Shown: positions 1,395-28,252 of the stretch, piece after piece
How the letters are laid out: each line of letters starts with the position of its first letter
How positions within the stretch are numbered: the first letter of the stretch is position 1
Made by a program: the position numbers and the translations under genes
Source of the DNA: an uncultured Rhodothermales bacterium
GTDB lineage: Bacteria > Bacteroidota > Rhodothermia > Rhodothermales > UBA10348
Assembly (NCBI GenBank): GCA_964383365.1
Contig: CAYLHF010000012.1
Span: 8,745 to 72,744 of the forward strand
DNA length: 64,000 bases
Reading direction: 5' to 3'
Notes under the pieces: model-generated
Seen by the model: the letters and a program-made list of their open reading frames with translations, nothing else
Told to the model about the DNA's origin: nothing
Databases searched by the model: none

Positions 1395-1414
1395 TCTTTT
1401 TCTTTGACAATTAG

Positions 1415-1446
1415 AGGGGAGGCTCTGACGAGCCTCCCCTTTTTTT
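1415..1446 (+). terminator. Rho-independent terminator after the FG-GAP gene
   Basis: A perfect 11-bp GC-rich stem, aggggaggctc (1415-1425) / gagcctcccct (1430-1440), has the loop tgac and is followed by TTTTTT (1441-1446). It lies about 20 nt after the stop at 1394. Confidence 0.85.
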
Positions 1447-1516
1447 GCCTAGTTTCGAGACTTACGTCCTGTTTTTTGCAATATCACGTGCTACGAGAGT
1501 GATTTCCCACAGACAA

Positions 1517-4318: not shown

Positions 4319-4369
4319 GCCACAAGCGGACAGTCCCTTCCGATATATTCTATCCCGACATTATTCGTT

Positions 4370-8877: not shown

Positions 8878-8889
8878 TCGCTCCGCCAG

Positions 8890-10527
8890 ATGCCAAACAG
8901 ATTTCTGCTCTCGTTCCTGCTATCTCTGCTGATCATCACAACGAGCCGGGCTCAGGTTCTGGACGATGTCAGCGAGACGGAAGTAACATTTCAATCCGCG
9001 AACGAGGAACGTCTCGGCAAGACCCTCACGCTGACGTCCGTCAGTCAACCGATTCTGGCTTCCTTCACGGGAGTCGTATTCGAAATAGCCTCGACGGCGG
9101 AATCCATCCAGGCCGCGGTCCGATTTGAAGCGGACGGGTCCTGGGGCCCGTGGATTGACCTCTATTCGGTCCGTTCGGTCACCGAAGATCTGTTTGTCGC
9201 CGGATTCCATGGAGAAACGTTGCGATCGGGAGTCCGGATGGAGATTCGCGTTTCAAATTCATCTTCGAGTCCCTTAACGCTGCGAGACGCCGGTATCTTC
9301 GACAACCGAACCGACGAGGATGCAACGTCATCGGCCCTACCGGCCGCCCCGAACGGAATCACAGGAAAAAAGGCTGGAAAAATAATTCCACCAGCCCTCA
9401 TTACCCGCGCCGACTGGGGCGCGTCACCGTTTCGAGGTTCACCCGTCGATCTTGCCCGACCGACCATTGATTTCCTGACGTTTCATCATGCGGCAGGTTT
9501 CAGTGCCACGTCCAGGGAGGATGGTATTCGACAGGTAAAGGCTATTCAGGACTTCCATCAGAATATCCGCGGTTGGAGCGATATTGGATATCAGTTCGCG
9601 ATCGACCGCAGTGGCCGACTCTATCAGGGAAGGCCGTTTCTTGATGCAAGCACCTCGCTGGCGCAAGTTCCTCGTCTGGCTCTTGGAGCCCACGTCGGAG
9701 GGCACAATACGGGCAACATCGGAACGGTTTTACTTGGGTGCTATCATCCTCCAGAGGGCAGTTTCTGCGAAGAAGTACCCACTCCGGAAGCACTCGCCAC
9801 GTACAAAACCCTTTTTGCTTTCCTGAGTGAGCGATACCATGTTGCCCCGACGCTGATCAGAGGCCACAGAGATTTCAGTGCGACTGCCTGTCCAGGTGAC
9901 AACAATTATGTTCGCCTTCCTCAGTTGAGAACAGATGTAGCCCGGCTTCTCGTAACGGGTAATCAATCACTCGGTACCGCCTCTCTCACCGCAGTAGTAG
10001 ACGACGAAGGCTTTGTAAGACTTTCGTGGGAGTTTCTCGAAGACTTCGGAATCGATGGATTCAGACTGGAACGAACGTTTCAGGACCGGACCGATACGAT
10101 CACCAGCGGAACGGGTGCACAGAATGGAACGTCGCTGGATGCTGGAATCACGCTGGCAGGCGACGTTTCGTATTTCCTCTATGCTGAATCTGCTGATGGA
10201 CGCGTTCAGAGACTCGCATCTCTTGAGCTGACCATGGATACGCCCGGGGAGTTTCTACTCGCGCGCGCATTTCCAAATCCGGCGAGTAGCCGAATTCAGA
10301 TACGGTACTTTGTGGCTCACAAAGGTGTCGTTCATTTAAACCTTTTCGATGCCACAGGGCGCCGCGTCAGATCGCTCGACGATTCCTTCCGAACGGAAGA
10401 CCGTTGGTATACATCAAGTCTGGATGTTTCCGGTTTGCCGGGAGGGATCTATTACTATCGGCTACGAATTGATGGTTTTTCTGGAATTGTCTTCGACAAG
10501 ACGCGCTCGATAGCCATCGTGCGTTAG
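8890..10527 (+). CDS. N-acetylmuramoyl-L-alanine amidase (Amidase_2/PGRP fold) with T9SS C-terminal sorting domain
   Basis: It has a signal peptide. The amidase core reads ITRADWGASPF...FLTFHHAAG...IQDFHQNIRGWSDIGYQFAIDRSGRLYQGRP...GAHVGGHNTGNIGTVLLG...GHRDFSATACPG, with His/His/Cys Zn-site positions. The C-terminus is AFPNPASSRIQIRYFVAHKGVVHLNLFDATGRRV...GIYYYRLRIDG. Confidence 0.8.
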   Translation: MPNRFLLSFLLSLLIITTSRAQVLDDVSETEVTFQSANEERLGKTLTLTSVSQPILASFTGVVFEIASTAESIQAAVRFEADGSWGPWIDLYSVRSVTEDLFVAGFHGETLRSGVRMEIRVSNSSSSPLTLRDAGIFDNRTDEDATSSALPAAPNGITGKKAGKIIPPALITRADWGASPFRGSPVDLARPTIDFLTFHHAAGFSATSREDGIRQVKAIQDFHQNIRGWSDIGYQFAIDRSGRLYQGRPFLDASTSLAQVPRLALGAHVGGHNTGNIGTVLLGCYHPPEGSFCEEVPTPEALATYKTLFAFLSERYHVAPTLIRGHRDFSATACPGDNNYVRLPQLRTDVARLLVTGNQSLGTASLTAVVDDEGFVRLSWEFLEDFGIDGFRLERTFQDRTDTITSGTGAQNGTSLDAGITLAGDVSYFLYAESADGRVQRLASLELTMDTPGEFLLARAFPNPASSRIQIRYFVAHKGVVHLNLFDATGRRVRSLDDSFRTEDRWYTSSLDVSGLPGGIYYYRLRIDGFSGIVFDKTRSIAIVR

Positions 10528-10550
10528 GTCGATAGCCATCGTGCGTTAGG
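10507..10550. repeat. Perfect 22-bp tandem duplication (2 copies) spanning the amidase stop codon
   Basis: tcgatagccatcgtgcgttagg occurs at 10507-10528 and again at 10529-10550, followed by tc. The TAG stop (10525-10527) lies in copy 1. Confidence 0.95.
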
Positions 10551-10965
10551 TCCATAACCGGGTTCGGTCTCGATCAGCAGATGCATACTATCCGCGTCGA
10601 AGATGCCCTCCGAAGGAGAGGTAGCGATCCCGTTCCCGGACGAATCATTTCTCAATGTTTCCCGGATAAAAGCATGCCCGGTTTTGGCTGTACCAAAACC
10701 GGGCAGCTTCACCCAGAACCAATCATCACTGAGAGGTGATCCACCGACGCAGAGCCAGGTCCTAATCCTGGGACGTGGCGGTCGGTGGCTGAGTCAAGGA
10801 TACGAATTCGTTGAAAAGACGTCTGTAGGAATAATTGAACCTCGTCGTGTAGGGCGTTTCCCTACGCATCTGAAGGGCTTCATGAGTGCGCTGTGGGGAT
10901 CGCTTCACCTTCAGAATGGGCGTATCGAGCCGATAACTGGCATGAAAGCTGTCTCACAGTAAGAC

Positions 10966-10981
10966 TGGCACAGTATTAGCC
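10966..10981 (+). promoter_or_regulatory. Candidate sigma-54 (-24/-12) promoter upstream of the exopolysaccharide cluster
   Basis: The sequence is TGGCACagtatTAGCc. The -24 TGGCAC is perfect and the GG-N10-GC spacing is correct, but the -12 element is TAGC rather than TTGC. It lies ~45 nt upstream of ATG 11025. Confidence 0.4.
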
Positions 10982-11024
10982 AAGTCATTGTCGACTGGTT
11001 ATCGCAAATACACGCCTTCAAAAA

Positions 11025-12137
11025 ATGTCCAACGCTAGAACTCTGACAAGAACCCTCATAGCAGGTGGGTCCGGCTTTATCGGCTCCCACCTCTGCGAAC
11101 GATTCCTTGAGGATGGACATCACGTTATCTGCGTCGACAATCTCATTACGGGACGTCGATCCAATATCAAACATCTACTGGGACATCCTCGATTTGCGTT
11201 CCTGGAACAGGATGTTTCGGTCTCCTTCACCATTGATGGTCCACTCGACAATATTCTTCACTTTGCCTGTCCCGCGTCCCCCATCGACTATTTGAAATAC
11301 CCGCTGGAAACACTGCAGGTGGGATCAGCCGGAACCAAGAATCTGCTTGACCTTGCCGTAGAGAAGAAATCCCGATTCCTTTTCGCGTCCACCAGTGAAG
11401 TTTACGGAGACCCTCTGGTTCACCCGCAAAAGGAATCATACTGGGGCAACGTAAATCCCATCGGTCCCCGAAGTGTATACGATGAGTCCAAACGTTTCTC
11501 AGAGGCGATCGTCTCTGCCTATCGCAGGGAAATGGGCGTTGAAGCCCGCATTATACGAATATTCAATACGTATGGGCCCCGCATGCGGCTCGACGACGGG
11601 AGGGTCCTTCCAACATTCATGGGACAGGCCCTCAGAGGCGAGCCTCTCACCATATTCGGAGATGGATCGCAGACCCGGTCTTTTTGCTATGTAGACGATC
11701 TGGTAGAAGGAGTTGTTCGGCTGCTCCAGAGCAACGAACCGTTGCCGGTGAACGTCGGAAACCCGGAAGAAATATCGATTGGTGGATTTGCCGAGGAAGT
11801 GATTGCCCTGACCGGTGCAAGGAGTTCTGTAACGTATCGAGCCCTGCCGGAAGACGATCCGAAAATTCGAAAGCCGGACATCACCCGCGCCTTCAATATC
11901 CTGGGTTGGTTCCCGAAAGTCGATCGTTCGAACGGACTGAAGAGAACACTTTCGTACTTCCAAAACGAAGTTCGGTGTGAAGCGTCCCCCGTATCCGAGC
12001 GGATGTCGGGTTTCGCTACAGAGTCGACGAAAAACCACACAACCCGGGTCACTCCTGATCGACAACCATCGGCACCACATGGTCATACTAACGGATTAAG
12101 AAACCCGGCCGATATTAAATCCCGTATGGTGGATTGA
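11025..12137 (+). CDS. UDP-glucuronate decarboxylase (UDP-xylose synthase-type SDR) with an atypical ~55-aa C-terminal tail
   Basis: It has the [35 protein letters not shown] Rossmann motif, then [40 protein letters not shown] with the YxxxK catalytic motif, which is characteristic of UXS/ArnA-decarboxylase-type enzymes. The low-complexity tail runs from about [12 protein letters not shown] to the end. Confidence 0.8.
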
Positions 12138-12155: not shown

Positions 12156-14738
12156 ATGAATAACAGTATAGACCACGATCACAGTTCTCAGCCCGTTCGA
12201 GAGCCAGGAAATGAGCACTCGGACGCACTACGCTGGCAGGCTCCGAGACCGCGCATTGACCACGATTCATCGGATGTTCCGTCTGATTCGGAATCCCGGC
12301 GTCCCACACGACATGGTCGCCGATCGAATGCCGATCCGGACACCCACGCGGACTCCGGATCATCTGAACTGCTGCCGGCTCTTCCATCGTCGACTCCGCC
12401 CGAGTGGACACGTCTGGTCGATGGCCGCCCTCAATCCGCACCCGCCCCTCCCCCGTTGTTTCCGGAACCTGCCCCAGCTGATTACGGTGGAGCCGATGAG
12501 TCTGTACTGGCCGTTCTGGGAAGAAGAAAAGCTGTTTTCTTACTAATCGCGATTCTTAGTTGGCTCTCCGTAGCGGCATATATCACTATTGTACCTCCAT
12601 CGTATGAGGCAACGACGCTCCTCATGGTCGATACTCGGGGATTCAGAAAGGAGGTGGAGGATCTTCCTCGAATAAATCGCGAATCGGCTCAGTTCGGGCT
12701 CGGTAAGATTGCGAACCACGCGCTCATATTGCAGACCTCGAATGAACTGGTTGAGACCACCGTGGATCAGCTCCTCGCAATGAAGCATGCGGGACTCATT
12801 ACGACTCCATTAACACTGTTCGACGGACTCGATCCCAATTTGGGTCGGGCCTCGGTTCTGAAACGATTCAGGAAAAAATTTGTCACGGTCAGTCCTCAAC
12901 CCAATGACGACGATGAACCCGATGCCATAATGGTCAGTGCCCTGAGCACCGAACCTGCGGAAGCTGCTCTGATTTCAAACCTGTATGCCCAGTCATATAT
13001 AAAGTCTGTTGTCGGAGCCCTGGAAGCGCAATATGTCGAAGCCCGGCAGTATTATGCTGATCTTCTGGTTAGCCAGGATGTAGTGATGGCAAATCTCGAT
13101 TCTTCTCTGCACGCTTTCGCCGCAAAGAGAGGAGACATTATGCTGGAGGAAGAAGAGTCTCACACAGTCAAGCAAATTTCCCTGCTTCGATCCAAGCTTG
13201 ATGACTCCCGGATCGAAATAAGTCAGTATGAAGCCAGAATATCCTCGCTGATCGATCAATTCAACAAACTGGAGCCGCAATTGCACGCTGAGCAAGCGGC
13301 ATCCGGATTGGATACACGTCTCCAGCAAACGAATGCCCGAATCGCAGAGGTAGAGTTGTCCATCGAGCAGTTCTATACCAAAAATCCCGGACTCCGAGAG
13401 CATCCCGAGACGAGCGAAGACTTGATGGATCTGCTTCTTGAAGCGGAATCACTTCGTCTCAGAATTAATCGGCTTTCAGCGGATTATGTGGATCAGGTCG
13501 TTGCCGTTGGAGGAATCGATCTTCAGAAGCTGGACTCTGGCGTTGCCATTATGGCCCAGCTGCGGCGCCAAATCGCGGAAGAGCGCGTGTCCCTGTCCGC
13601 TGAAAAGGCACGGGAAGCCGCTATTCTGACCCGCCTGGCCCAATATGAGCAACAGCGAAAAATTCTTCCGACTCAGCAGGTCGACCTCGAAAAACTTGAG
13701 CGCCAGCATGCCGTTGCGGAGACCAGACACGACGAACTGAAAGAGAAAATCAGAAAAATAGACGAGGCAGAGAGTTCACAGCGAATATTTGCCCAGGTAG
13801 CCGTACCCGCCGTAACCCCGATTGAACCCGTACGGGCACCGTCAGTAATCGGCGGTCTCGGATTCGTTTTGGGCATCTTACTGGCCATCGGCGGCGCATT
13901 TGCCCGCGACAAAACCGATTCTCGGATATTTGAACCGACCGATATGGTCCCGGACCAGATTGATCTCATCGGAACTATACCCGATCTGCGGAAAGAGCAT
14001 TCGATCTTCAGAAGCAGGAAATCATTTGCACCCTTCTTCGAGAGAACGGTATCTACAGATCTGGTCAGCCTACTTCACCCACAGTCTGCCGTATCTCACG
14101 CGATCAAGAGTCTTCAAATGCGCCTTTCCGGGGATCCCTCCGAAATGCAGGTATTTGTTGTCACGAGCCCGGAAATGGAAGACGGCAAGAGTATGATCGC
14201 TGCGAATTTCGCCGTAACACTCGCCCAATCCGGCTATCGAACGCTCCTTCTTGATGCAGATATCTACCATCCATCCGTCAGCCGGTTACTGGGTCTTACC
14301 AAGCAGGCTGAGTTCGATCTGGAGACCTGTACGTTTTCTGACGGACGGGGCGTAGAGGCCTTTTCCGCAGCCCTGCCGAATCTTTACGCACTCTCCCTGC
14401 ATGGACCTGATAACGGAACTGCTGAATTCTTGATGTCCACGCACCTGGTCCCTGTTATCGAACGGGTCAGAAATCATTTCGATGTCGTCGTAATCGATAC
14501 GCCACCGGTAACGCACTCAACCGATGCGTTGCGACTCGGTCAACTCAGTGACGAGGTATTTCTGGTTGCACGCACCGGCAAGACGCATTTCGAGTTATTC
14601 CAGAAATCCGTAACGGATATAGACCGTGCGGCCAGCCGACCTCCTCGCGTCATATTGAATGGCTACACGGATAAGGCGGACGCCAGTAAGCACAAGCGAC
14701 GGCGCTACAACAAACGCACGCAGCACAGAACGTCGTGA
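12156..14738 (+). CDS. Polysaccharide co-polymerase / BY-kinase-like protein (Wzc/GumC type), non-canonical
   Basis: A ~120-aa disordered Pro/Ser/Asp-rich N-terminus is followed by a TM helix, a long coiled-coil periplasmic region and a second TM helix. The P-loop domain has VFVVTSPEMEDGKSM (Walker A), LLLDADIYHPS (Walker A'-like, lacking the usual Arg) and VVVIDTPPV (Walker B). The C-terminal tail (GYTDKADASKHKRRRYNKRTQHRTS) has only 2 Tyr and no Tyr cluster. Confidence 0.75.
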   Translation: MNNSIDHDHSSQPVREPGNEHSDALRWQAPRPRIDHDSSDVPSDSESRRPTRHGRRSNADPDTHADSGSSELLPALPSSTPPEWTRLVDGRPQSAPAPPPLFPEPAPADYGGADESVLAVLGRRKAVFLLIAILSWLSVAAYITIVPPSYEATTLLMVDTRGFRKEVEDLPRINRESAQFGLGKIANHALILQTSNELVETTVDQLLAMKHAGLITTPLTLFDGLDPNLGRASVLKRFRKKFVTVSPQPNDDDEPDAIMVSALSTEPAEAALISNLYAQSYIKSVVGALEAQYVEARQYYADLLVSQDVVMANLDSSLHAFAAKRGDIMLEEEESHTVKQISLLRSKLDDSRIEISQYEARISSLIDQFNKLEPQLHAEQAASGLDTRLQQTNARIAEVELSIEQFYTKNPGLREHPETSEDLMDLLLEAESLRLRINRLSADYVDQVVAVGGIDLQKLDSGVAIMAQLRRQIAEERVSLSAEKAREAAILTRLAQYEQQRKILPTQQVDLEKLERQHAVAETRHDELKEKIRKIDEAESSQRIFAQVAVPAVTPIEPVRAPSVIGGLGFVLGILLAIGGAFARDKTDSRIFEPTDMVPDQIDLIGTIPDLRKEHSIFRSRKSFAPFFERTVSTDLVSLLHPQSAVSHAIKSLQMRLSGDPSEMQVFVVTSPEMEDGKSMIAANFAVTLAQSGYRTLLLDADIYHPSVSRLLGLTKQAEFDLETCTFSDGRGVEAFSAALPNLYALSLHGPDNGTAEFLMSTHLVPVIERVRNHFDVVVIDTPPVTHSTDALRLGQLSDEVFLVARTGKTHFELFQKSVTDIDRAASRPPRVILNGYTDKADASKHKRRRYNKRTQHRTS

Positions 14739-14811
14739 ATCCACATTTTCAGGGCATTCAGGCAACGGATTCCGGGCCGGGTCGGGTATAATAGCAAACA
14801 GGCAACATGGC

Positions 14812-16986
14812 ATGCCCGCAAATCAACCAAAATCAGCCCCTAAGACCGCGCATCGTCTGGACTCATGGATAGAGCGGGCTCGACTGTTTCGGCCCTTCCG
14901 ATCAAACGCTGTTTGGGCGCTCCTCGACCAGGGTTTTGTGAGTGTCTGCAATTTTACGACCATTTTTCTCATTGCCCGATTTACGTCTGCCGAGACACTC
15001 GGGCTATTTGTTCTTCTGTACAGCATCCTGCTGCTCGCCACCGACCTACAGCACGCCTCGCTCACACAGGCACATAACGTCCTGGTACCCCAACTGTCTA
15101 CACGTGAGACCAATTCCTTCACGTCAGTTCTATTCGAACTTCAACTCGCCGGCGGAACGGTCACTGCGCTCCTATTCGGTCTCGCAGCTGTACTATTCCA
15201 TTATGCTGGATCGACCGAAGTAGCCCATGCCGTTCTGTGGCTCTCGATCACAGCGCTACCGTGGCTCATTCAGGATGCAATTCGGAGAGTCATGTACACA
15301 GCGGGAGATTCCAGGTCGGCACTCAAGAATGACGCCCTCTCCTATGGATTACAGGCACTGTCTATAGCGGTACTGGTAACCGGTCAAACGCCCCGTGTCG
15401 GAGATCTATATGCAGTAATTGGAATGTCATCGGGCGTCGCCGTCGGTTATGGACTTTGGCAGTTGAGAAAGCACTTACACTTTGTCCGTCCCTCCTCTCC
15501 TTCTTTCTGCTCCATTACCCGTCGAATATGGCAGTTCAGCAGGTGGCTGACCGGAAGCGAGGTACTCCATTGGATCGGTCGACACGGAAATGTATGGGTG
15601 CTCGGAGCGTTCGTCGGAATCGGTCCGGTCGGGACGTTCAAGGCTGTAATCCAGCTTACCAACATACTGAATCCAATCAAACTGGCGACATTTACGTATC
15701 TCCCGTCTCGGGCGAGTCGGATTCTTCATGAGACAGGAAAGGACAGCTTTCGACGATGGTTAATGCGGGTCGGTGGGTTGATTCTGATTCCGTATACCAT
15801 GGTAATTCTCACCCTGATAGTGTTTTCACGTCAGATACTGCATTTTGCCTACAACGGACATTACGATGGCTCCGGTCTCGCCATCATTTTGTCCCTCGGT
15901 GCGCTCGGGCACCTCCTCTATTTTGTCCGTTCACTGATACAGATCGATCTCATTTCCAGAGGCCGCAATTCGGCAATATTCACAGACAGTTTCCTCTCCG
16001 TCGTCATGCTACTGACAATCGGAGTTTTCAGTATCAGCATCCTGGGTATAAAGGGAGCGGTCATATTCGAAATCATCATGGCTTCTGCCCTCATCCTGTA
16101 CAACGTGCTCGTGTATAGAGGGAAACTGGATCCCGGAGATGTACGGGATAGAGAGCTCGGGGCTGATTCTCAGGAACGCGCCGCTGCCGATATTCTCGAC
16201 CGGAGCCAGTTAATCGACCGCGGCTCTGAGGCCAACATCTACCTCACTGAATCGAAAAGAACGGTCATCAAGGTGTACGAGGGTGACAATAAGGTAGATA
16301 AACTCAGGAATGCCCGGTACGAATTTGAAACGCTGAAACGTCTGGAGCGCCAGAGAACAGGAGTTGGTTGTGTCGACCTTCCGCGGGTCATTCGGCTCAG
16401 TACGAACCCGGCCGCTGTTGAAATGACGAGATTGAAGGGCCTGCCTCTGCTTGATTTGATTGCGAGTACAGATATTGACTCGGGAGATGTGCCTGGAATA
16501 GCCGTGAAACTTCTCGCCGGCCTTACCTACGTTTCCAGACTCCTGAAAGGACCGTATAGAGATTTCAGTGTGAGAAATGTATTGATGGACCCTGCGACCG
16601 GTCGCCTCTCATTTCTCGATTTCGGTCCCGGCCAGTGGAACGCGATAACGCAGGTTCAGTCGTCATCAATCGCCACGTCCGTTGGACACTTCGTAGGTGA
16701 TGGTCTGTATCAGCTGACGAGGCCTGAATTCGTAGCGAATGGTAGACTGAAGCGACTCATGCCGGAGTTGTGCTCTGCCCTGCTGATGGAGTTGGCAGAA
16801 CATGAATCGGTTGGTTTGAACATAATGGATGACCTTCATCACTTCATGGATGAGAAGTTTTCTGCCAATACGTCCCAGGGAGGTCTCATTCGAAGAAGTT
16901 GGTATGCTTCCTTCGGGAACGCCCGGTTCAGAATGCATACCTCTCGCCTTCGCAGGCGATTCCCCACTGGCGAAAATGAAGTCTGA
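14812..16986 (+). CDS. Fusion protein: Wzx-like polysaccharide flippase (MOP superfamily) plus C-terminal Bud32/RIO/Kdo-kinase-like kinase domain
   Basis: The N-terminal ~440 aa form a multi-helix hydrophobic domain typical of oligosaccharide flippases. From ~16189 the sequence reads RGSEANIYLTESKRTVIKVY (G-loop plus Lys, aag 16270-16272), YRDFSVRNVLMD (catalytic D..N, 16561-16584) and LSFLDFG (DFG, 16618-16626). The ORF track starts at 14659 inside the previous gene, so ATG 14812 is preferred. Confidence 0.7.
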   Translation: MPANQPKSAPKTAHRLDSWIERARLFRPFRSNAVWALLDQGFVSVCNFTTIFLIARFTSAETLGLFVLLYSILLLATDLQHASLTQAHNVLVPQLSTRETNSFTSVLFELQLAGGTVTALLFGLAAVLFHYAGSTEVAHAVLWLSITALPWLIQDAIRRVMYTAGDSRSALKNDALSYGLQALSIAVLVTGQTPRVGDLYAVIGMSSGVAVGYGLWQLRKHLHFVRPSSPSFCSITRRIWQFSRWLTGSEVLHWIGRHGNVWVLGAFVGIGPVGTFKAVIQLTNILNPIKLATFTYLPSRASRILHETGKDSFRRWLMRVGGLILIPYTMVILTLIVFSRQILHFAYNGHYDGSGLAIILSLGALGHLLYFVRSLIQIDLISRGRNSAIFTDSFLSVVMLLTIGVFSISILGIKGAVIFEIIMASALILYNVLVYRGKLDPGDVRDRELGADSQERAAADILDRSQLIDRGSEANIYLTESKRTVIKVYEGDNKVDKLRNARYEFETLKRLERQRTGVGCVDLPRVIRLSTNPAAVEMTRLKGLPLLDLIASTDIDSGDVPGIAVKLLAGLTYVSRLLKGPYRDFSVRNVLMDPATGRLSFLDFGPGQWNAITQVQSSSIATSVGHFVGDGLYQLTRPEFVANGRLKRLMPELCSALLMELAEHESVGLNIMDDLHHFMDEKFSANTSQGGLIRRSWYASFGNARFRMHTSRLRRRFPTGENEV

Positions 16987-17049: not shown

Positions 17050-18531
17050 ATGCATTCGCCTGCTTCTCAGAACTACGAAGGAAGACGCCCTACCGGCAGC
17101 CGGTCCAATTCGCGATCGACCCGACCGGCAGATGATCGTCGCACGCCCCGACGAAATGCTGCTCGTAGGATAACTCGCGGAGGAAGGTCAAGACCTGAAT
17201 CACCGGAAGCATACTGGATTGCCCGGGACCGATCGGCCGGTGTTCTGGGACGTTGGTTTCTGATTCTGCTCTCAATTGTTCTCACCGGGTACACTTTTTT
17301 TGGCCGGGGATTCGCATATATCGGTGTCGCACCGGTTTTCATCGGAGAAATCACACTCTTTTTGGGCGGTCTGGCAGCCATTCAATCTCATAAACTGGGG
17401 TATGTATGTAGACTCCCCGTTGTTCGGGTACTTCTTCTGGTGATGATCTGGGGGGCCATCAACACGGTTCCATACATAGACCGGTATGGAGCAACAGCGC
17501 TCAGAGACGGAGCGATATGGGGATACGGAACGTTTGCAATCATAGTGGCAGCCGTAATACTCGCTCATCCAGATCGGATCCGGATTCTACTCGTACGATA
17601 CCGGCTTTTTGCTCTTGGTTTCGCTCTATCCGCTGCGGCGCTTTACATCCTTGCCAACGTCACGAACGGCGGTTTTACGGTTCCCGGTTCACCGTCACCG
17701 ATTCTGACGGCCAAAGGGGGAGATATGCAGGTTCACCTTGCGGGCATAGCCATTTTCACCATGATAGGGTTCGCAAATAAGCGACCATTGATACTCACCA
17801 TGACGGCCATAGATTTGGTGGTCATCATGGTTAGTAATCGAGGCGGGATGGTTTCATTCATGCTCGCCATTACGTTTCTACTGATTCTCAGGCCTCCGAG
17901 GCTCAGGGTCGCCCCGATCATATATGGCCTGCTCCTGGTAGTGGTAACCGTCATTCTGATCAACCCCGTGATTCACATCAACAAACGACGAACGCTCTCG
18001 CTTGAGCAGGTACAGGAGAACGTGGAGAGTGTTTTGTACAGTTCCAGAGCTTCCAGCCTCGAAAGTACCAAGGCGTGGCGAGTCCACTGGTGGGTCGATA
18101 TAATCAACTACACCGTGTTCGGAAAGTATTTCTTCACCGGCAAGGGCTATGGAATCAATCTGGCGAACTCGGACGGATACCAGGTATACAAAAACGAGTC
18201 GCTCCGGAGCCCGCACAGTGCCCACATGACATTCCTGGCAAGATCAGGGGTCCCGGGGTTGCTGTTATGGATACTTTTTCTGTCGTCGTGGTGGATCGGG
18301 ATGATGAAGGTGACGCTGTCAACTCGAAAACGCGGAGAAACCAGGTGGTTTGGGATTTTTGCATTTCTGACTACGTATTGGACCGCATTCGTTATCAATT
18401 CGTCGTTTGATGTTTTCCTTGAGGGTCCCATGGGAGGTATCTGGTTCTGGTGCGTGACTGGCGTCGGGATCGCCGCACTTGAATTATATAGAACGCAACC
18501 CGAACTATTTCTGGAGCGATCTGAGGCATGA
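17050..18531 (+). CDS. O-antigen ligase/polymerase-family (Wzy-like) membrane protein with Arg-rich N-terminal tail
   Basis: The body is polytopic and hydrophobic, with a large loop containing SDGYQVYKNESLRSPHSAHMTFLARSGVPGLLLW (Wzy_C-like H..H/R motif region). The first ~60 aa are Arg/Ser/Pro-rich (RRPTGSRSNSRSTRPADDRRTPRRNAARRITRGGRSRPE). Confidence 0.7.
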   Translation: MHSPASQNYEGRRPTGSRSNSRSTRPADDRRTPRRNAARRITRGGRSRPESPEAYWIARDRSAGVLGRWFLILLSIVLTGYTFFGRGFAYIGVAPVFIGEITLFLGGLAAIQSHKLGYVCRLPVVRVLLLVMIWGAINTVPYIDRYGATALRDGAIWGYGTFAIIVAAVILAHPDRIRILLVRYRLFALGFALSAAALYILANVTNGGFTVPGSPSPILTAKGGDMQVHLAGIAIFTMIGFANKRPLILTMTAIDLVVIMVSNRGGMVSFMLAITFLLILRPPRLRVAPIIYGLLLVVVTVILINPVIHINKRRTLSLEQVQENVESVLYSSRASSLESTKAWRVHWWVDIINYTVFGKYFFTGKGYGINLANSDGYQVYKNESLRSPHSAHMTFLARSGVPGLLLWILFLSSWWIGMMKVTLSTRKRGETRWFGIFAFLTTYWTAFVINSSFDVFLEGPMGGIWFWCVTGVGIAALELYRTQPELFLERSEA

Positions 18532-19322
18532 AATATCCGTCTGAATATATTGTCGGTATGCGGGTAGACGTCCTGAATTACGAGACAGCGACTGATCAAA
18601 TTCTTCAGTGGTCGGAAGAGCGAAGCAACCGGCGGGTGTGTGTGGCCAACGTCCACATGGCCATGGAATCACACGATGACAAGTCTTTCAACGAGGTGGT
18701 GAACCGCGCCGACATGGTCACCTCCGACGGAATGCCACTCGTATGGGCGCTCAAGATACTGGGACATAAAGACGCTTCTCGAGTGTACGGTCCTGACCTG
18801 CTTCTAGAGATCTGCCGTGGAGCCTCCAAGCGGAAGATTCCTATAGGTCTCTACGGAGGTACGAGCGACCGCCTACGTGAATTCAAGGAAACACTCGAAC
18901 GCAGATTTCCGGATATCGTCATCGCATGTTCTATCGCTCCTCCATTCAGACCCCTCACGGAAGATGAGGACGACGCGTACACCCGCGAACTGGTCGAAAG
19001 TGGCGTTCGCATCATCTTCGTTGGAATAGGGTGTCCGCGCCAGGAGCGCTGGATGGCAGATCATGCAAGACAAATTCCGGCAACGATGATTGGTGTCGGG
19101 GCTGCATTTGATTTCCACAGCGGACATGTACGACAGGCACCGGTCCTCCTGCAGCGGTTCGGGATGGAATGGGCGTTTCGCCTGGCTATGGAACCCCGAA
19201 GGTTATGGAAGCGATACATGAAACATAACCCCAGATTTGTCTTCCTCTTTCTGCATCAAGTCCTGTGGTCGAATCGTTCGAACCATTCGTCTGATACTTC
19301 AACCGCAGCGGTACACCCGTAG
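18528..19322 (+). CDS. WecB/TagA/CpsF-family glycosyltransferase
   Basis: Family-typical motifs are present: VCVANVHMAMESHDD, ADMVTSDGMPLVWALKILG, RVYGPDLL, IGLYGG, IFVGIGCPRQERWMADH, GVGAAFDFHSGHVRQAP and GMEWAFRLAMEPRRLWKRY. A 4-nt overlap (ATGA) links it to the upstream gene. Confidence 0.85.
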   Translation: MKYPSEYIVGMRVDVLNYETATDQILQWSEERSNRRVCVANVHMAMESHDDKSFNEVVNRADMVTSDGMPLVWALKILGHKDASRVYGPDLLLEICRGASKRKIPIGLYGGTSDRLREFKETLERRFPDIVIACSIAPPFRPLTEDEDDAYTRELVESGVRIIFVGIGCPRQERWMADHARQIPATMIGVGAAFDFHSGHVRQAPVLLQRFGMEWAFRLAMEPRRLWKRYMKHNPRFVFLFLHQVLWSNRSNHSSDTSTAAVHP

Positions 19323-19325
19323 CGG

Positions 19326-20489
19326 ATGAAAATTCTCCTGGTACATAACTACTATCGAGAGCGGGGTGGCGAGTATCGCGTTTTCAAAGATGAAGCAGAG
19401 ATGCTTCGAAGACACGGTCACGATGTTCAGACGTTTACCAGGCATAATGATGATACGAAGGGAATGAACGCCCTTGAGCTCGCCCGGAAAACGGTCTGGA
19501 ACAGGGAGATCTACGATGAGATGGGGGCGATACTGCAGACAGAACGGTTTGATATCGTTCACGTTCACAACACACTGGCCCTCGTATCCCCGGCGGTCTT
19601 TCATGCGTGCAGAGACAATAACGTACCGGTCGTTCAGACCTTACACAATTATCGTCTGGTTTGTGCGAACGGTCTGTTGTTCAGAGACGGATCCATCTGC
19701 GAAAACTGTCTAAAGACGTCGTTTCCTTTCCCTGCGTTGATGTACGGATGTTACCGGAATAGTCGTTTAGCCACTGCCGGCGTTGTAGCATCGACTATGT
19801 GGCACAAGAAAATGGGTACGTGGTCGGACGTAGTATCTGGTTTCATCACGTTGAATTCTTCAGCCAGAGATATTTATCGTGAACATGGAATTCCGGATAC
19901 AAAACTTTTCATCAAGCCCAATGCGGTAGATACGCGAAATCTTCCCGGAAACGGTGACGGTGGGTATGCCCTGTTCGTGGGACGCTTGGTTCCGGAGAAG
20001 GGCGTAGAGACACTCGTTTCGGCCTGGAAAGACGCCTCCGTACAGACCCCCCTTAAAATCGTAGGAGATGGCCTCCTGATGGACGATCTGACCACACTGG
20101 CTGCCGGACTTCCCATCGAATTTGAAGGACTGAAAACCAGATCAGAGACACTCGAGCTGATGAGAAACGCGGCTCTCCTTGTTTTTCCGTCCACGTGCTA
20201 CGAGGGCTTCAGCAGGGTACCGATCGAGGCACTGGCCATGGGTACCCCGGTCCTGGCATCCAGACTGGGTGCCGTTGTGGACGTCGTCATTGAGGGTCAG
20301 ACCGGATATTTCTTCGATGCCGGTGATCCCGCATCACTCGGAGAACGAATGAAGGCAATTGAGTCCGACGTCTCCGTCCTCTCTCGAATGCGGCCGCACG
20401 CAAGAAATGATGCGGTCCGGCGATTTGGAGAGGATGCGAATCATCACATGCTCATGTCCATCTACGAATCCATCATCGATTCGGCCTGA
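19326..20489 (+). CDS. Glycosyltransferase family 4 (GT-B fold)
   Basis: MKILLVHNYYRERGGE marks the N-terminal GT4 domain. The C-terminal domain has YALFVGRLVPEKGVETL...LLVFPSTCYEGFSRVPIEALAMGTPVLASRLGAV...GQTGYFFDAGD (E-x7-E region). Confidence 0.8.
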   Translation: MKILLVHNYYRERGGEYRVFKDEAEMLRRHGHDVQTFTRHNDDTKGMNALELARKTVWNREIYDEMGAILQTERFDIVHVHNTLALVSPAVFHACRDNNVPVVQTLHNYRLVCANGLLFRDGSICENCLKTSFPFPALMYGCYRNSRLATAGVVASTMWHKKMGTWSDVVSGFITLNSSARDIYREHGIPDTKLFIKPNAVDTRNLPGNGDGGYALFVGRLVPEKGVETLVSAWKDASVQTPLKIVGDGLLMDDLTTLAAGLPIEFEGLKTRSETLELMRNAALLVFPSTCYEGFSRVPIEALAMGTPVLASRLGAVVDVVIEGQTGYFFDAGDPASLGERMKAIESDVSVLSRMRPHARNDAVRRFGEDANHHMLMSIYESIIDSA

Positions 20490-20512: not shown

Positions 20513-22147
20513 GTGGCCGAAAACAGAGACGTATCGTTTCGTCTTCCGGAAGGAGGCAGAGCGGTAGACCCACAACGTTTTTCCCGGGTATTATTGATGT
20601 CAACTTCTTCCGAACAGGCGCAGATGCGACTGGTGAAACGACCCAGTGGTCGTCATCACGAGAAGGATTCGTGCGTTTATCAGCATATTTCGCTCTCCGA
20701 GACGATGGTGAACGCCAGTGCCGGTGTTCAGCGAGGAAATGGTGACCATGCCTCTCCTGTCGCTTTTGAGTATCGGCGTGTTTTTAATACCATTTCTCTC
20801 GCAACGGGTGATGCGGCCGCACTGGCGCTCTCTCTGACGTTAGCGGGTGCGCTGCATTATTTTGTATCAGGAGCGCCGCTTTTCCAGTGGTGGATCAATC
20901 TCATTCTTCCCATCTGGATGGCGAGTGCGGTAATGTTTCGTTTGTATCCTGGTTGGGGATTGGGAGCCATTGAAGAACTCAGACGTGAAGTGTTGGCTAC
21001 CAGCCTTACGTTTGGTTTTGCCGCAATCCTTCTCTTCTGGGGAAAGATGGCAGCCGATACCAGTCGATTCTCCTTTTCCATTGCCTTTCTAATTTCTCTT
21101 GTCCTCATCCCCGCATTACGGAGATCCATCAAGGCCCTGCTCGTTCGAACGGGTCGTTATGGACTACCGGTCGTCCTCTACGGCGCCGGTGAGACCGGAC
21201 AGGAGGTCGTGAGGTCACTTCGGGCTGAATCTGGACTCGGATACCGACCGATTGCTTTTCTGGATGACCACCCGGGATTCTGGGGTGAATTTGTCGAGGG
21301 AATCCCGGTCCTCGGAGACACCAATCTGGTTCTCCCGGATGCCCAGGCTGCCATTCTGGCCATGCCGAGAGCAGAGCGGGAATTCAAAATGCATCTGCTT
21401 GAAGGGCCGCTCTCCTATTACCGAAATGTTATCATTTTGCCGGACATGAGTGAGATGCCGTCACTCTGGGTCCGAACATTTGATCTGGGGGGAATCCTCG
21501 GTCTGGACATCAAGCTGAATCTTGCAGATACCACGTCCAGAATACTGAAGCGGTCATTTGACCTCGCCTTCACGCTCCTGTTCTCTCCGCTCTGGATTAC
21601 TCTCTGCAGCGTCGTGGCGGTGATGATCTGGCTGGAAGACGGACAGTCACCCCTTTTCCGGCAAACCCGCATAGGATTACGTGGCAATTCTTTTCAGACC
21701 CTCAAATTCAGAACGATGGTTTCAGACGCTGACAGCGTCCTGGAAAGGTATCTGAATGCTGACCCGGCATTGAGAACGGAATGGGAGACGCGCTGTAAAC
21801 TGGAAAATGATCCGCGCATCACACGGATTGGAAAAGTATTAAGACGCCTTTCAATCGATGAACTTCCTCAACTGATCAACGTCATCCGGGGAGACATGTC
21901 GCTCGTTGGGCCAAGGCCGCTGCCTGATTATCATGAAACCGAGCTCGTGAACCGGGTGAAATCGCTAAGGCGCAGGGTCAGACCCGGTCTTACCGGCTTG
22001 TGGCAGGTTTCCGGCCGATCCGACACCGGCAATGCCGGGATCGAACAGTATGACGCCTACTACGTGAGGAATTGGTCAATCTGGTTAGACATCGTGATTC
22101 TTGTTCGGACCGTACGGGCCGTGATTCGATCGTCGGGAGCCTACTAA
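20513..22147 (+). CDS. Polyprenyl-phosphate hexose-1-phosphate transferase (WbaP/exopolysaccharide priming sugar transferase)
   Basis: N-terminal TM helices are followed by a central Rossmann-like region (VVLYGAGETGQEVVRSL) and the C-terminal bacterial sugar-transferase domain KRSFDLAFTLLFSPLWI...PLFRQTRIGLRGNSFQTLKFRTM...RITRIGKVLRRLSIDELPQLINVIRGDMSLVGPRPL. The true start is uncertain, since internal Met codons at 20597 and 20708 are possible. Confidence 0.85.
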   Translation: MAENRDVSFRLPEGGRAVDPQRFSRVLLMSTSSEQAQMRLVKRPSGRHHEKDSCVYQHISLSETMVNASAGVQRGNGDHASPVAFEYRRVFNTISLATGDAAALALSLTLAGALHYFVSGAPLFQWWINLILPIWMASAVMFRLYPGWGLGAIEELRREVLATSLTFGFAAILLFWGKMAADTSRFSFSIAFLISLVLIPALRRSIKALLVRTGRYGLPVVLYGAGETGQEVVRSLRAESGLGYRPIAFLDDHPGFWGEFVEGIPVLGDTNLVLPDAQAAILAMPRAEREFKMHLLEGPLSYYRNVIILPDMSEMPSLWVRTFDLGGILGLDIKLNLADTTSRILKRSFDLAFTLLFSPLWITLCSVVAVMIWLEDGQSPLFRQTRIGLRGNSFQTLKFRTMVSDADSVLERYLNADPALRTEWETRCKLENDPRITRIGKVLRRLSIDELPQLINVIRGDMSLVGPRPLPDYHETELVNRVKSLRRRVRPGLTGLWQVSGRSDTGNAGIEQYDAYYVRNWSIWLDIVILVRTVRAVIRSSGAY

Positions 22148-22167: not shown

Positions 22168-23937
22168 ATGATACATCACATCCCGCGTGAGTTAACGGCC
22201 GAGCACGTCTCGATTGCAAATGGTAAATCGATAACCGGCGGCGCGACCTTCGTAGGAAGCATACGAGCCGTATCCATTCCTCTCCTGCTGACAGCCTTCT
22301 ACTATTACTCGTTCCATGCCCTGAGTATCACTGGAGCGGACCTCATCTCAGCCGGATATAAGATTTTGGTTTCGGCGATGGTCCTTACGACCGTGCTCGC
22401 AACCGAGTGGCGGATGAGCCGGATTCTTGCTCTGACCGGTCTCACAATCGGGTACGCTGTCAATGCCATCCATTTTTATAGATACGGCGGACCGCTATCC
22501 CCCGGAGGATTGAGTTCTTCCCTCGAATCCAATTCCCGGGAAGTCGTCGAGTTTTTGTCCCTCATTCCAGCTCGATCCATCGTACAGACGATTGTATTCA
22601 TCGTCGTCGGAGTCTTCTCCATCCGCCGTTTTACGGCACTCCAGACCCGGGACAAAAAGCGCCTGATTCGAGCACGCTTTGCGTGGACCGTCCTCATACC
22701 CCTACTTCTTGTCCCGTTTATCCGGAGATCTGCCAGTACAAAATTCTGGCGGGAAATTTCCCGGAATCCGGTGGCCGTGACAGCCAACCTATATACCCAC
22801 GTACCCGTGATCGGCGAAGCGCTCCTGACGCTGGGCTATTATGAGCAACGAGCGGGACTCACCAGGCTCGAGGAAACGACACAGCCGACCAATATTGTCG
22901 GATTCTCGGACATCGGGACACCAGAGATTGTCGTCCTCGTCATTGGCGAAACCACTCCGAAAAATCATCTGTCGGCCTATGGATACGGTATCGATACCTC
23001 GCCATTTTTGTCGGATCTCAGGTCCGATCCTGGTGCGATATTTATGGAAAACGCAGTCGCTCCCGCTTCTATCACGAGGGAATCTCTCATCCGCGTGCTC
23101 TCATTTGCCACCACGTATGAAAGGAAACCGTACCTCAACAACTGGAATGTCATTGACGTGGCAAGGAATGCCGGGTACTCGACCGATTGGCTCTCGAATC
23201 AGTGGCCGTATGGCTCTGACGAGAGTGCCGTGGGAGCGGTCGCACATCTCGCCGATCGGACCGAGTATATTCAGTTCGATGCTGAAGGACCAACTTTCGA
23301 CACGGACCTTGCGGATCGATTCGGGGAGGTACTAAATGCTCCGGAAAGAGCGCTCTCGAGTAAGAATTCGCCGGACGAGAACAAACGATTTTTTGTTTTG
23401 CATCTGGCCGGAAGTCATTACAGATATGACGCCCGCAGCACGTCTGAAGACAAGGCGTATATCCAAGCGACCCGATCCGAAGAGCCCGAGTTCGATGCCA
23501 GCGTCTACGAAACAGACCGGACTCTTCAGCGCGTCATCGAAACCCTGAGGATTCGGGAGGAATCTTCAGTGGTCCTCTTCGCCTCGGACCACGGTGAAGA
23601 GGTGGGCCTCAAGAGTCACGGTTTTCCGGAACTCAGCAGGGTCCAGGTTGAGGTCCCGTGTGTAATCTGGGCCAATCACCCCCCGAGTGCCGGTTCAATT
23701 CTTGCAGGCATCGCCTCCAACAGGATTAAGCCCTTCTCTACGGAAAATGTACCCTTTATCCTGTCGAAACTTTTCGGATGGACCCTTCGACCCGATCCGC
23801 GAAGAGATCCGTCTCTGATGGCATATTTTCCCGGAACGCTACAGGTTTTGAACGTCGACGGTAGAATAATTCCCGTTGACGACAGCCTCCCCTACTCGCT
23901 TGGTAATCGAGCCGGTTCGTGGCTATTTGGATATTGA
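22168..23937 (+). CDS. Membrane-anchored sulfatase-fold phosphoethanolamine (or related phospho-substituent) transferase, EptA/LptA-like
   Basis: N-terminal TM helices precede the motifs VVLVIGETTPKNHLSAYGY, HLAGSHYRYDAR and LFASDHGEEVG, which are typical of EptA-family alkaline-phosphatase-superfamily transferases. ATG 22168 is preceded by ggagg and avoids overlap with the upstream gene. Confidence 0.7.
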   Translation: MIHHIPRELTAEHVSIANGKSITGGATFVGSIRAVSIPLLLTAFYYYSFHALSITGADLISAGYKILVSAMVLTTVLATEWRMSRILALTGLTIGYAVNAIHFYRYGGPLSPGGLSSSLESNSREVVEFLSLIPARSIVQTIVFIVVGVFSIRRFTALQTRDKKRLIRARFAWTVLIPLLLVPFIRRSASTKFWREISRNPVAVTANLYTHVPVIGEALLTLGYYEQRAGLTRLEETTQPTNIVGFSDIGTPEIVVLVIGETTPKNHLSAYGYGIDTSPFLSDLRSDPGAIFMENAVAPASITRESLIRVLSFATTYERKPYLNNWNVIDVARNAGYSTDWLSNQWPYGSDESAVGAVAHLADRTEYIQFDAEGPTFDTDLADRFGEVLNAPERALSSKNSPDENKRFFVLHLAGSHYRYDARSTSEDKAYIQATRSEEPEFDASVYETDRTLQRVIETLRIREESSVVLFASDHGEEVGLKSHGFPELSRVQVEVPCVIWANHPPSAGSILAGIASNRIKPFSTENVPFILSKLFGWTLRPDPRRDPSLMAYFPGTLQVLNVDGRIIPVDDSLPYSLGNRAGSWLFGY

Positions 23938-24707
23938 CGTCCCACGCCCACATAGAACATCCACACTCTCTCAAACGTGACATTTTTGTCACCACCAGTT
24001 GGGATGATGGACATCCCTCGGATTTCAGACTCGCAAATCTCCTGCTGAAGTACGGCCTTCGGGGGACATCGTATATTCCAATCAGAAACACAGAGCATGC
24101 GGTCCTCGATGCGTCGGGAATCAGGGCACTTTCCGAATCTGGCCTGGAGATAGGCGCACATACGTACAATCACGTTCGTATCGACCGCATGTCCTACGCT
24201 GACGCCCTTCGGGAAGTCGAATCAGGAAAAAATACCCTGGAAGATATCACGGGGACTGTCGTCTCAACCTTCTGCTACCCGAAAGGAAAAATCAGTAGTC
24301 GGGCAAGACGCGCGGTTCGAGACGCGCAGTTTATCTACGCAAGAACGACGAAAGCCTTCCACACGATGCCTCCGGCCGATCGCCTTCTGGCACCGGTAAC
24401 ACAGCAGATTTATGATCACGCCCCACAAGTCCATGTCAGGCATGGGGTTAAGGAGGCGAACTGGACGGGACTGAAGAATTGCTTTCCGGTGATTATTCGT
24501 ACTCGGTCTCTTTCCGATCAAATTCGAAAGCACATCGAGTACGTCGAAATGAATGGAGGTATTCTGCACCTCTGGGGCCATTCATGGGAACTCGACGAAC
24601 ATAATCTCTGGTCCCTCACGGAAGAAATTTTTCAACTTCTGGCCAGCATTCGAGGTGCGCGCTTCCTCACGAACTCAGAGTTGAGTGTGCCGATCGTGGC
24701 GAGTTGA
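23919..24707 (+). CDS. Polysaccharide deacetylase (NodB homology domain)
   Basis: FVTTSWDDGHPSDFRLANLLLKYGLRGTSYIP (TxDDG-type motif 1), LEIGAHTYNHVRI (H-x4-H-like motif 2) and FCYPKGK are present. The start is GTG and overlaps the upstream gene by 19 nt. Confidence 0.7.
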   Translation: MAIWILTSHAHIEHPHSLKRDIFVTTSWDDGHPSDFRLANLLLKYGLRGTSYIPIRNTEHAVLDASGIRALSESGLEIGAHTYNHVRIDRMSYADALREVESGKNTLEDITGTVVSTFCYPKGKISSRARRAVRDAQFIYARTTKAFHTMPPADRLLAPVTQQIYDHAPQVHVRHGVKEANWTGLKNCFPVIIRTRSLSDQIRKHIEYVEMNGGILHLWGHSWELDEHNLWSLTEEIFQLLASIRGARFLTNSELSVPIVAS

Positions 24708-28103: not shown

Positions 28104-28252
28104 CGTCCTCCGTTTCGTAGTCAATGAGCCGAGGAAACGAAATCCTCCGACGGAACCTTCTGGAAAACAGGTAGGTTGTACGCCACAGTTTTGAACGACT
28201 CGATCTCTTCTCTCGTTAGGGTCGTTTTGGCCTGTCAATCGAAGCACGTCAA

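Follow-up and report, generated by a model that had tools for sequence, protein, structure and literature searches.

A Wzx-type flippase fused to an apparently intact kinase-fold domain of an unclassified family in a Rhodothermales polysaccharide locus

Kinase-fold proteins have been met in several pathways of bacterial surface glycan assembly. WaaP, WaaY, and KdkA phosphorylate sugars of the lipopolysaccharide (LPS) core, and phosphoethanolamine can afterwards be attached to this phosphate (PMC3526765). In E. coli O9a, the proven glycan kinase WbdD combines a methyltransferase with a kinase that caps a polyprenol-linked polymannan (PMC3482155). According to PMC6180346, which describes the work of Gee et al. 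(2012), the mycobacterial flippase MurJ/MviN carries an intracellular pseudokinase, which is phosphorylated by PknB and binds FhaA. Proteins with protein-kinase-like (PKL) domains have also been noted, uncharacterised, in exopolysaccharide (EPS) clusters, e.g., WpsI of Actinoplanes (PMC13390465). Here we describe a gene for a Wzx-type flippase fused to a kinase-fold domain, named K below, in a 64,000-nt stretch of DNA from an uncultured Rhodothermales bacterium (contig CAYLHF010000012.1, positions 8,745 to 72,744). This whole stretch is called the window, and all plain coordinates are window positions. No account of a Wzx-kinase fusion or of the K family was found in the literature searched.

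The fusion is a genuine single open reading frame (ORF), since it is intact in two near-identical but distinct sequences and the same architecture is found in diverged proteins of independent assemblies. The frame extends over 14659..16986 on the forward strand, and the ATG at 14812, backed by a public gene call and by homologue alignments, yields a protein of 724 aa; another ATG lies just before it at 14809, and the frame runs 51 codons 5' of the likely start (14659-14811), the first 80 nt of this extension coinciding with the 3' end of the Wzc-like gene. The second sequence is a 91-kb contig of a public JGI metagenome (sample 3300002231, KVRMV2_100026032; L001), which matches window positions 4835-26981 with 99.7% identity over 22 kb, 35 mismatches, and several indels. 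Its protein (P0001) has the identical start called, and the two genes differ by 4 nt and 3 residues, the full ORF being kept in both. Several of the mismatches fall on N positions of the public record, and an intergenic indel of ~24 nt is located near 10539-10544; the two are different sequences, and the relation looks like that of strain or assembly variants. More distant Wzx+K proteins, 21-29% identical to the window protein, are present in Logan, ENA, JGI, and NCBI assemblies (P0062, P0072, P0075/P0117, P0109, P0113, P0087, and L008). The first-pass annotation of the window had named a sequencing frameshift at the junction (~16100-16200), joining two genes, as a finding that would refute it. 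An assembly or frameshift error could act through a single nucleotide, as the flippase and K are separate genes with overlapping ends in three related loci (L004, L016, and L018); however, the two intact copies, the equal fusion in at least six diverged lineages, and a junction with no long homopolymer run, no in-frame ATG, GTG, or TTG, and no ORF in another frame that continues either domain make it extremely improbable.

The N-terminal half is predicted to be a Wzx-type flippase transporting a repeat unit linked to undecaprenyl diphosphate (Und-PP). Pfam model Polysacc_synt (PF01943) matches aa 31-287 (E 1.8e-9, 37.9 bits versus a gathering score of 28.2), and the full-length AlphaFold (AF2) model (pLDDT 88.6, pTM 0.70) has 12 long helices within aa 32-437, ending at nt ~16122, in agreement with the boundary of ~16120 first drawn from the letters alone. 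Foldseek comparison with the PDB retrieved transporters of the MOP superfamily, with the best TM-score for the lipid III flippase WzxE (9g9p/9g9n, TMt 0.80, root-mean-square deviation 4.0-4.3 Å over ~415 columns). A Wzy_C polymerase, a Wzc-like polysaccharide co-polymerase, and a WbaP-type initiating transferase share the operon with the fusion gene. Because of the 12 helices and of the distribution of loop Lys and Arg residues, 25 on the N-terminal side versus 4 on the opposite one, both termini, and hence K, are placed in the cytoplasm, as had been anticipated.

An exhaustive HMMER scan with the C-terminal 279 aa against 1.84 billion cluster representatives revealed 112 homologous clusters at E<=1e-3, including 31 at E<=1e-10, most of them stand-alone proteins of 250-290 aa that span the whole domain. 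Word-indexed searches yielded very little, with 4 matches for the full protein, 2 for the K-family alignment, and 3 for the fusion alignment, and only the exhaustive search was productive. K looks active because Lys487, Glu504, Asp584, Asn589, and Asp603 are 91-99% conserved over all 112 K domains (the basis of all conservation percentages in Table 1), and because a bilobal kinase fold is modelled with pLDDT 92. In the alignment with 54 homologues, Lys42 and Asp158 of the domain (Lys487 and Asp603 of the protein) are invariant, and conservation is 90% or higher at Glu59, Asp139, and Asn144. The motifs first read from the sequence are all found at their places, with a conservation that speaks against chance, and the opinion that the domain is catalytically intact holds: by sequence criteria K is apparently active and not a pseudokinase. 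The catalytic loop has the family consensus E-P-Y-x-D-F-x-x-x-N-x-L-Y-D, with the core YRDFSVRN in the window protein. Beyond DFG, the family is marked by S-L-G-N-L-x-G ... R-P and by the C-terminal G-x-x-x-R-R-x-W-Y-x-T-x-G. Past the latter motif, most K proteins end in a short basic or hydrophobic segment, often phi-L-phi-A-R-R (window example at 16891-16983); the fused members P0062, P0072, and P0075 end instead in a hydrophobic stretch resembling a transmembrane (TM) helix. A role of this tail as a membrane anchor was considered and rejected, given that only 2 of 64 tails are TM-like and most are short and basic or hydrophobic, although the tail may interact with the membrane.

The relationship of K to known kinases is distant. 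In comparisons of the K-family profile with solved kinases, COQ8B came first (3e-11, over ~110 residues from helix C to DFG), followed by MELK (6e-9), then ULK3, CaMKs, PknB, and StkP, with Bud32 (8k20_B) at 4e-6, and a single-sequence search of PDB chains with K gave only sub-threshold matches, to STK24. The model of K had 946 kinase-fold matches in the PDB at E<=1e-3 by Foldseek. PRPK/Bud32 was at the top (E 1.9e-7, TMq 0.53, TMt 0.63-0.65), and PsiK, MTR kinase, RIO2, APH(2''), NleH, and COQ8A were close behind, with E-values within about two orders of magnitude. The description of K as "Bud32/RIO-like" in the first-pass annotation seems to be right for the compact fold, PRPK being the top if weak match, and wrong for family membership: no RIO1 (PF01163) or Bud32 model matched at E<=1, RIO1 was weakly matched by 2 of 55 relatives, and the Bud32 chain scored with the K-family profile behind COQ8 and the eukaryotic protein kinases.

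Other families were rejected as well. No Pfam or NCBIfam model matches the K domain of the window protein or covers any of the 112 clusters, and a Pfam scan of 55 K-family members gave weak, split matches to APH in 12, ABC1 in 10, Pkinase in 9, and RIO1 in 2 of them. The Kdo/WaaP model of LPS kinases (PF06293) matched neither the window protein nor any of these relatives. APH (PF01636) did not match the window protein, and two fused relatives scored above its gathering score of 23.2 (P0113 with 35.3 bits and P0075 with 26.9 bits). Membership in the Hanks protein kinases is contradicted by the absence of GxGxxG (the loop being RGSEAN), by a D+2 position where Lys is not among the family's commonest residues, by the lack of an APE motif, and by the unmatched Pkinase model; the segment after DFG is short, without an extended activation loop. 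The window protein does not match ABC1, and on sequence inspection the domain begins at beta-1 right after the linker, with no KxGQ motif as in UbiB. It is not a flippase-pseudokinase of the MviN type, the transporter being Wzx-type, the catalytic residues intact, and the chain ending after K, and a MurJ+K relative (P0021) matched no MviN pseudokinase entry in the PDB search. Finally, a terminating kinase of the WbdD type is disfavoured, as a methyltransferase+K relative (P0018) had no WbdD match among PDB chains and the locus is Wzx/Wzy-dependent. Classification by profiles and by structure thus confirms the kinase fold, and K, being intact by sequence, appears to be a phosphotransferase or an ATPase from a rare and unclassified PKL family. 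The term unclassified is used with respect to Pfam and NCBIfam; CapK is an orphan PKL family named by Kannan et al. (2007; PMC1821047).

The survey of domain architectures, made by Pfam scans among the 112 representatives, demonstrated that the fusion recurs in diverged proteins and that K has further partners. K follows a Wzx-like flippase in P0072, P0075, and P0109 and, by alignment, in P0062 and P0113; in P0087 and in L008, from a Rhodothermales metagenome-assembled genome, a GT4 glycosyltransferase is added to form a triple fusion. Other combinations are MurJ-like flippase with K (P0027, P0021, and P0026), K with GT4 (P0045, P0082, and P0098) or GT2 (P0028), S-adenosylmethionine (SAM)-methyltransferase with K (P0018 and P0050), and a K-K tandem (P0008 and P0023). 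All fusion partners appear to be enzymes or transporters of lipid-linked glycans. The neighbour-joining tree of K domains is star-like and supports only that the Wzx-like and MurJ-like flippase fusions arose at least two times.

The same coupling is visible in gene neighbourhoods: nine independent locus types have K either joined to a MOP flippase in one protein or encoded right beside it. A locus search with a three-sequence alignment contributed 7 loci. The loci L005/L006 (P0117) are syntenic with the window, in the order epimerase, Wzc-like, Wzx+K, GT4, Wzy, WecG, GT4, GT4, beta-helix protein, and initiating transferase. The orthologues of the window genes match with E 1e-96 to 1e-133, except for the initiating transferase, where the end of the locus truncates the match. 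L018 (P0045) shares with the window the operon together with the upstream PorV-like and amidase genes, and here the start of a K+GT4 protein coincides with the end of a 445-aa flippase. The triple fusion is also encoded in L007/L011, the glycosyltransferase is a separate gene with overlapping ends, like the flippase and K, in L004 and L016, and in L019 a MurJ+K gene is followed by GT4 and initiating transferase genes in a sugar-modification locus. The order flippase, K, glycosyltransferase is kept, fused or split, in L004, L016, L018, the Rhodothermales triple fusion, and L019. In L016 K genes flank the flippase on both sides, L017 is a polysaccharide locus with a methyltransferase+K protein, and L020 has the order flippase, K, K-K, GT2, GT4, and Wzy. 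The three K domains in a row past the L020 flippase (2976-8219) comprise a 275-aa K gene and the tandem protein, and the gene immediately preceding the flippase encodes a member of the beta-propeller phytase family (PF02333, E 3.4e-40). The combination of a phosphatase with three neighbouring kinases is a hint that the product carries many phosphates. L004 and L016 contain, just before a GT4 gene, a second and different kinase-fold gene of the APH family (10316-11470, 384 aa, and 6396-7445, 349 aa, respectively).

K is probably a modular accessory of the flippase, because flippases closely related to that of the window occur without K (L002, L009, L010, L012, L013, and L014), and the window flippase is equally similar to these (up to 38%) and to the K-associated ones. 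The conserved flippase charges D39, R56, R158, R159, R244, and K277 are common to both sorts. In all five K-less loci where the gene directly 3' of the flippase is identifiable, it encodes a non-sugar decoration enzyme: a polysaccharide pyruvyl transferase in L002, L010, and L014, a hexapeptide acyltransferase in L009, and a methyltransferase in L012.

The reading that we favour, at about even chances, is that K phosphorylates a sugar of the Und-PP-linked repeat unit at the cytoplasmic face and then hands the unit to its own flippase. The WbaP-type transferase, the WecG-type glycosyltransferase, and GT4 would assemble the repeat unit on undecaprenyl diphosphate at this face; K would use ATP to place a phosphate on a sugar hydroxyl as a non-sugar decoration; and, being tethered to the flippase or encoded beside it, K would pass the finished unit straight to the flippase. 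In the window, a phosphoethanolamine-transferase-like enzyme may decorate the unit further in the periplasm after flipping. We prefer this reading because K takes the slot of decoration enzymes, is fused to glycosyltransferases and methyltransferases, occurs as two or three paralogues per locus, is cytoplasmic, and has conserved catalytic residues while lacking features typical of kinases with protein substrates. The presence of paralogues (L016 and L020) recalls WaaP and WaaY, each of which modifies its own site, and not a single regulator. The family as a whole may be dedicated to lipid-linked glycan assembly and catalytically competent. That phosphorylation is coupled to flipping had been proposed from the sequence of the window alone, with either the repeat unit or a partner such as the Wzc-like neighbour as substrate. 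The coupling fits the recurrent fusion or adjacency of K with flippases, and between the two substrates the evidence favours, by inference, the lipid-linked glycan. The EptA/CptA-like gene fits a later periplasmic addition of phosphoethanolamine and is a local hint only. A conserved pair of kinase and phosphoethanolamine transferase was considered and dropped, the transferase being seen in the window alone.

Several points weigh against this reading. The nearest folds of K, Bud32/PRPK, RIO2, and COQ8, are mainly ATPases or protein-directed enzymes and not sugar kinases. To our knowledge, no phosphorylated polysaccharide has been described from these uncultured organisms. In the DNA available for the other K loci, no phosphoethanolamine-transferase gene was seen. 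No extra conserved cationic residues, sought as binders of a phosphorylated substrate, were found in K-associated flippases compared with K-less ones. The linker has low confidence in the model, so that the relative orientation of the flippase and K cannot be read from it. Finally, a stand-alone member (P0012) is located in a metabolic, non-polysaccharide context (L015).

Two alternatives keep K close to the control of export. K could be a regulatory protein kinase acting on the Wzc-like co-polymerase, the initiating transferase, the flippase, or itself, which would replace or supplement the tyrosine-autokinase cycling. The K profile also matches true protein kinases (MELK, ULK3, PknB, and StkP). 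The Wzc-like neighbours of K are poor in tail tyrosines, with two in the window and none in L018 and L017 versus seven in the K-less L012, and the L018 copy fits none of the simple Walker A, A', and B patterns searched for; moreover, the MviN-FhaA-PknB system (PMC6180346) is a precedent for a flippase kinase-fold domain that acts via protein phosphorylation. However, the tyrosine comparison covers very few loci, and degenerate co-polymerase kinases exist without K, e.g., PslE (PMC13434223). The fusions with GT4, GT2, and methyltransferases and the several paralogues per locus are hard to explain by regulation, K occupies the slot of a decoration enzyme, and it has no D+2 Lys, APE motif, or extended activation loop, so that we regard a regulatory kinase as rather unlikely. 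It is unlikely, too, that K serves as a checkpoint in the flippase, where phosphorylation or ATP hydrolysis upon binding of the completed lipid-linked unit licenses the Wzx cycle. Such nucleotide-gated export would make the family a general "modify-and-flip" module, also in combination with MurJ-like flippases. We know of no nucleotide-gated control of Wzx proteins.

In two further alternatives the glycan receives no phosphate from K directly. K might be an ATPase or nucleotide-dependent switch similar to Bud32/PRPK, RIO, or COQ8/UbiB that senses or extracts the polyprenyl-linked substrate and licenses or energises flipping. This would agree with COQ8B as the best profile match, with COQ8A and PRPK among the top fold matches, with the weak affinity of 10 of 55 members to ABC1, and with a tight coupling that singles out flippases from two MOP families (Wzx-like and MurJ-like). 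On the other hand, the UbiB-specific N-terminal extension with the KxGQ motif is lacking on sequence inspection, closely related flippases function without K, and K+glycosyltransferase and methyltransferase+K fusions, as well as stand-alone K genes far from flippases, do not suit a flippase-specific motor, which leaves the switch quite unlikely. The idea of a kinase of a free small molecule (a sugar at C1 or an amino alcohol) that feeds substituent activation, as AmgK does with MurU or LicA with LicC, appears improbable. It draws on the weak APH affinity of 12 of 55 members, two of them above the gathering score, on the fold matches to PsiK, MTR kinase, and APH(2''), on NTP_transferase genes in L004 and L007, and on the metabolic context of L015. 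However, no nucleotidyltransferase is present in the window operon, L005/L006, or L018, and a covalent link to a flippase or glycosyltransferase brings no obvious benefit. In addition, CAK/APH kinases typically have a substrate-binding helical insert between subdomains VIa and VIb (PMC1821047), which K, to judge from its compact secondary-structure layout, does not possess.

The features of the fusion gene and its operon are collected in Table 1.

Table 1. Coordinates of the fusion gene, its domains and motifs, and the other genes of the polysaccharide operon in the window
Feature	Position	Strand	Basis
Whole fusion gene, Wzx-type flippase + PKL kinase domain, 724 aa	14812..16986, stop codon included	+	ORF list and public gene call
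N-terminal cytoplasmic basic segment (predicted), aa 1-31 (7 K/R within aa 1-35)	14812..14904	+	Residue count; pLDDT low
12-TM MOP/Wzx flippase domain (predicted), aa 32-437	14905..16122	+	Pfam PF01943, AlphaFold helices, WzxE fold match
Interdomain linker, aa 438-461 (~25 aa), helical in part, aa 440-451 modelled with low confidence, no start codon inside	16123..16194	+	Model and sequence
Protein-kinase-like domain K, aa 462-715 (~255 aa), unclassified family	16195..16956	+	HMMER family, profile search, AlphaFold and Foldseek
Nucleotide-binding loop RGSEANIY, aa 470-477; Gly471 67% conserved in family	16219..16242	+	Sequence and family alignment
Beta-3 lysine Lys487 within VIKVY, 98% conserved	16270..16272	+	Family alignment
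Helix-C glutamate Glu504, 91% conserved	16321..16323	+	Family alignment
Catalytic loop YRDFSVRNVLMD, aa 582-593; Asp584 97%, Asn589 96%; no Lys at D+2	16555..16590	+	Family alignment
DFG motif, Asp603 99% conserved; inside LSFLDFG, aa 599-605	16618..16626	+	Family alignment
Family-specific C-terminal motif R-R-x-W-Y-x-x-x-G; Arg694 86%, Trp697 88%, Tyr698 80%, Gly702 79%; basic tail after it	16891..16917	+	Family alignment
NAD-dependent sugar epimerase/dehydratase, first gene of the polysaccharide operon	11025..12137	+	Domain scan; syntenic in L005, L006, L018
Wzc-like co-polymerase with BY-kinase-type ATPase domain; Walker A DGKS, A' DADIYHP, B VVVIDTPP; 2 tail Tyr	12156..14738	+	Domain scan and motifs
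Wzy-type polymerase (Wzy_C)	17050..18531	+	Orthologues E 1e-113 to 1e-125 in K-bearing loci
WecG/TagA-family glycosyltransferase	18528..19322	+	Domain scan and orthologues
GT4 glycosyltransferase	19326..20489	+	Domain scan and orthologues
WbaP-type initiating polyprenyl-phosphate hexose-1-phosphate transferase	20513..22147	+	TIGR03022, 423.7 bits, cutoff 403
Phosphoethanolamine-transferase-like membrane protein (EptA/CptA superfamily)	22168..23937, start from public gene call	+	Pfam Sulfatase; NCBIfam CptA subfamily E 4.9e-37, below cutoff
Polysaccharide deacetylase (Polysacc_deac_1)	23919..24707	+	Domain scan

The operon order is epimerase, Wzc-like, fusion gene, Wzy, WecG-family glycosyltransferase, GT4, WbaP-type initiating transferase, EptA/CptA-like, and deacetylase. 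A phosphoethanolamine-transferase gene is unusual for an EPS locus; it begins here 20 nt past the initiating transferase. The Wzc-like protein of the window has a Pro/Ser/Asp-rich N-terminal extension of ~110 aa and a variant Walker A', and its counterpart in L018 is an 898-aa protein (3941-6637). Upstream of the operon (18-10527, forward strand) there are genes related to type IX secretion (T9SS). They encode an FG-GAP protein whose C-terminus is a T9SS sorting domain, an outer-membrane protein of the CarboxypepD_reg/Plug type, an 1133-aa protein without a Pfam match, a PorV-like barrel, and an amidase that likewise has a T9SS sorting domain; the last two are kept as a pair upstream of the operon in L018 (1-2290). 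Downstream (24861-29404, forward strand), a hybrid sensor kinase with Reg_prop/Y_Y_Y domains and a fatty-acid desaturase are encoded, and a desaturase is also next after the initiating transferase in the syntenic L018 (16950-17890). No export gene of the Wza/OPX type was seen among the genes scanned (18-33069).

How Wzx recognises a completed repeat unit and how the unit is handed over to it is a long-standing question. A natural fusion with the presumed last cytoplasmic modifying enzyme offers a defined, testable system for such hand-off or gating. The analysis also flags an unannotated family of 112 clusters as probable glycan-phosphorylating enzymes of exopolysaccharide pathways, and it leads one to expect that Rhodothermales-like bacteria make polysaccharides with phosphate and possibly phosphoethanolamine on them. 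The varied fusions (Wzx with K, K with GT4, Wzx with K and GT4, MurJ with K, methyltransferase with K, and K with K) constitute a clear Rosetta-stone signal that could help to annotate many loci.

Compared with the systems described so far, K as we read it would be most similar in its role to the glycan kinases. WaaP, WaaY, and KdkA are likewise cytoplasmic PKL enzymes that act on a sugar of a lipid-linked glycan before flipping, with several paralogues for different sites per locus; in contrast to K, they belong to the Kdo family, to which K has no sequence match, are not fused to a transporter, and use lipid A-core and not a Wzx/Wzy unit as substrate. WbdD, too, has a kinase-fold domain that works on a polyprenol-linked glycan from the cytoplasmic side, and its activation loop is short and non-regulatory; its order of methyltransferase followed by kinase is found in the K members P0018 and P0050. 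However, there is no detectable sequence relationship, and WbdD belongs to an ABC-transporter pathway, is a chain terminator with a coiled-coil ruler, and is not fused to a flippase. Bud32/PRPK and RIO share with K the compact kinase fold with a small helical C-lobe and, in the window protein, the G-x-E-A-x-(I/V)-Y loop, whereas their C-terminal helices differ, the RRxWYxxxG motif is peculiar to K, and the biological context is unrelated. UbiB/COQ8 (ABC1) is the best match of the sequence profile, and both it and K are tied to polyprenyl lipid chemistry, but K is devoid of the N-terminal KxGQ domain and the match extends over only ~110 residues.

The first-pass annotation knew of no characterised flippase-kinase fusion, a statement that has to be corrected in view of mycobacterial MurJ/MviN, though the kinase-fold domain of the latter is dead and not detectably related to K. 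As presented in PMC6180346, MviN is, like the window protein, a MOP flippase of lipid-linked oligosaccharides with a cytoplasmic kinase-fold domain past the last TM helix. It has a dead Hanks-type pseudokinase on a 14-TM MurJ and a further extracellular domain, in contrast to the intact residues on a 12-TM Wzx in the window, and on this account it is only a partial precedent. Overall, glycan kinases of the PKL fold and fusions of flippases with pseudokinases are already known, whereas the literature searched holds no description of the K family, with its active site intact and its members systematically coupled to flippases of the Wzx type.

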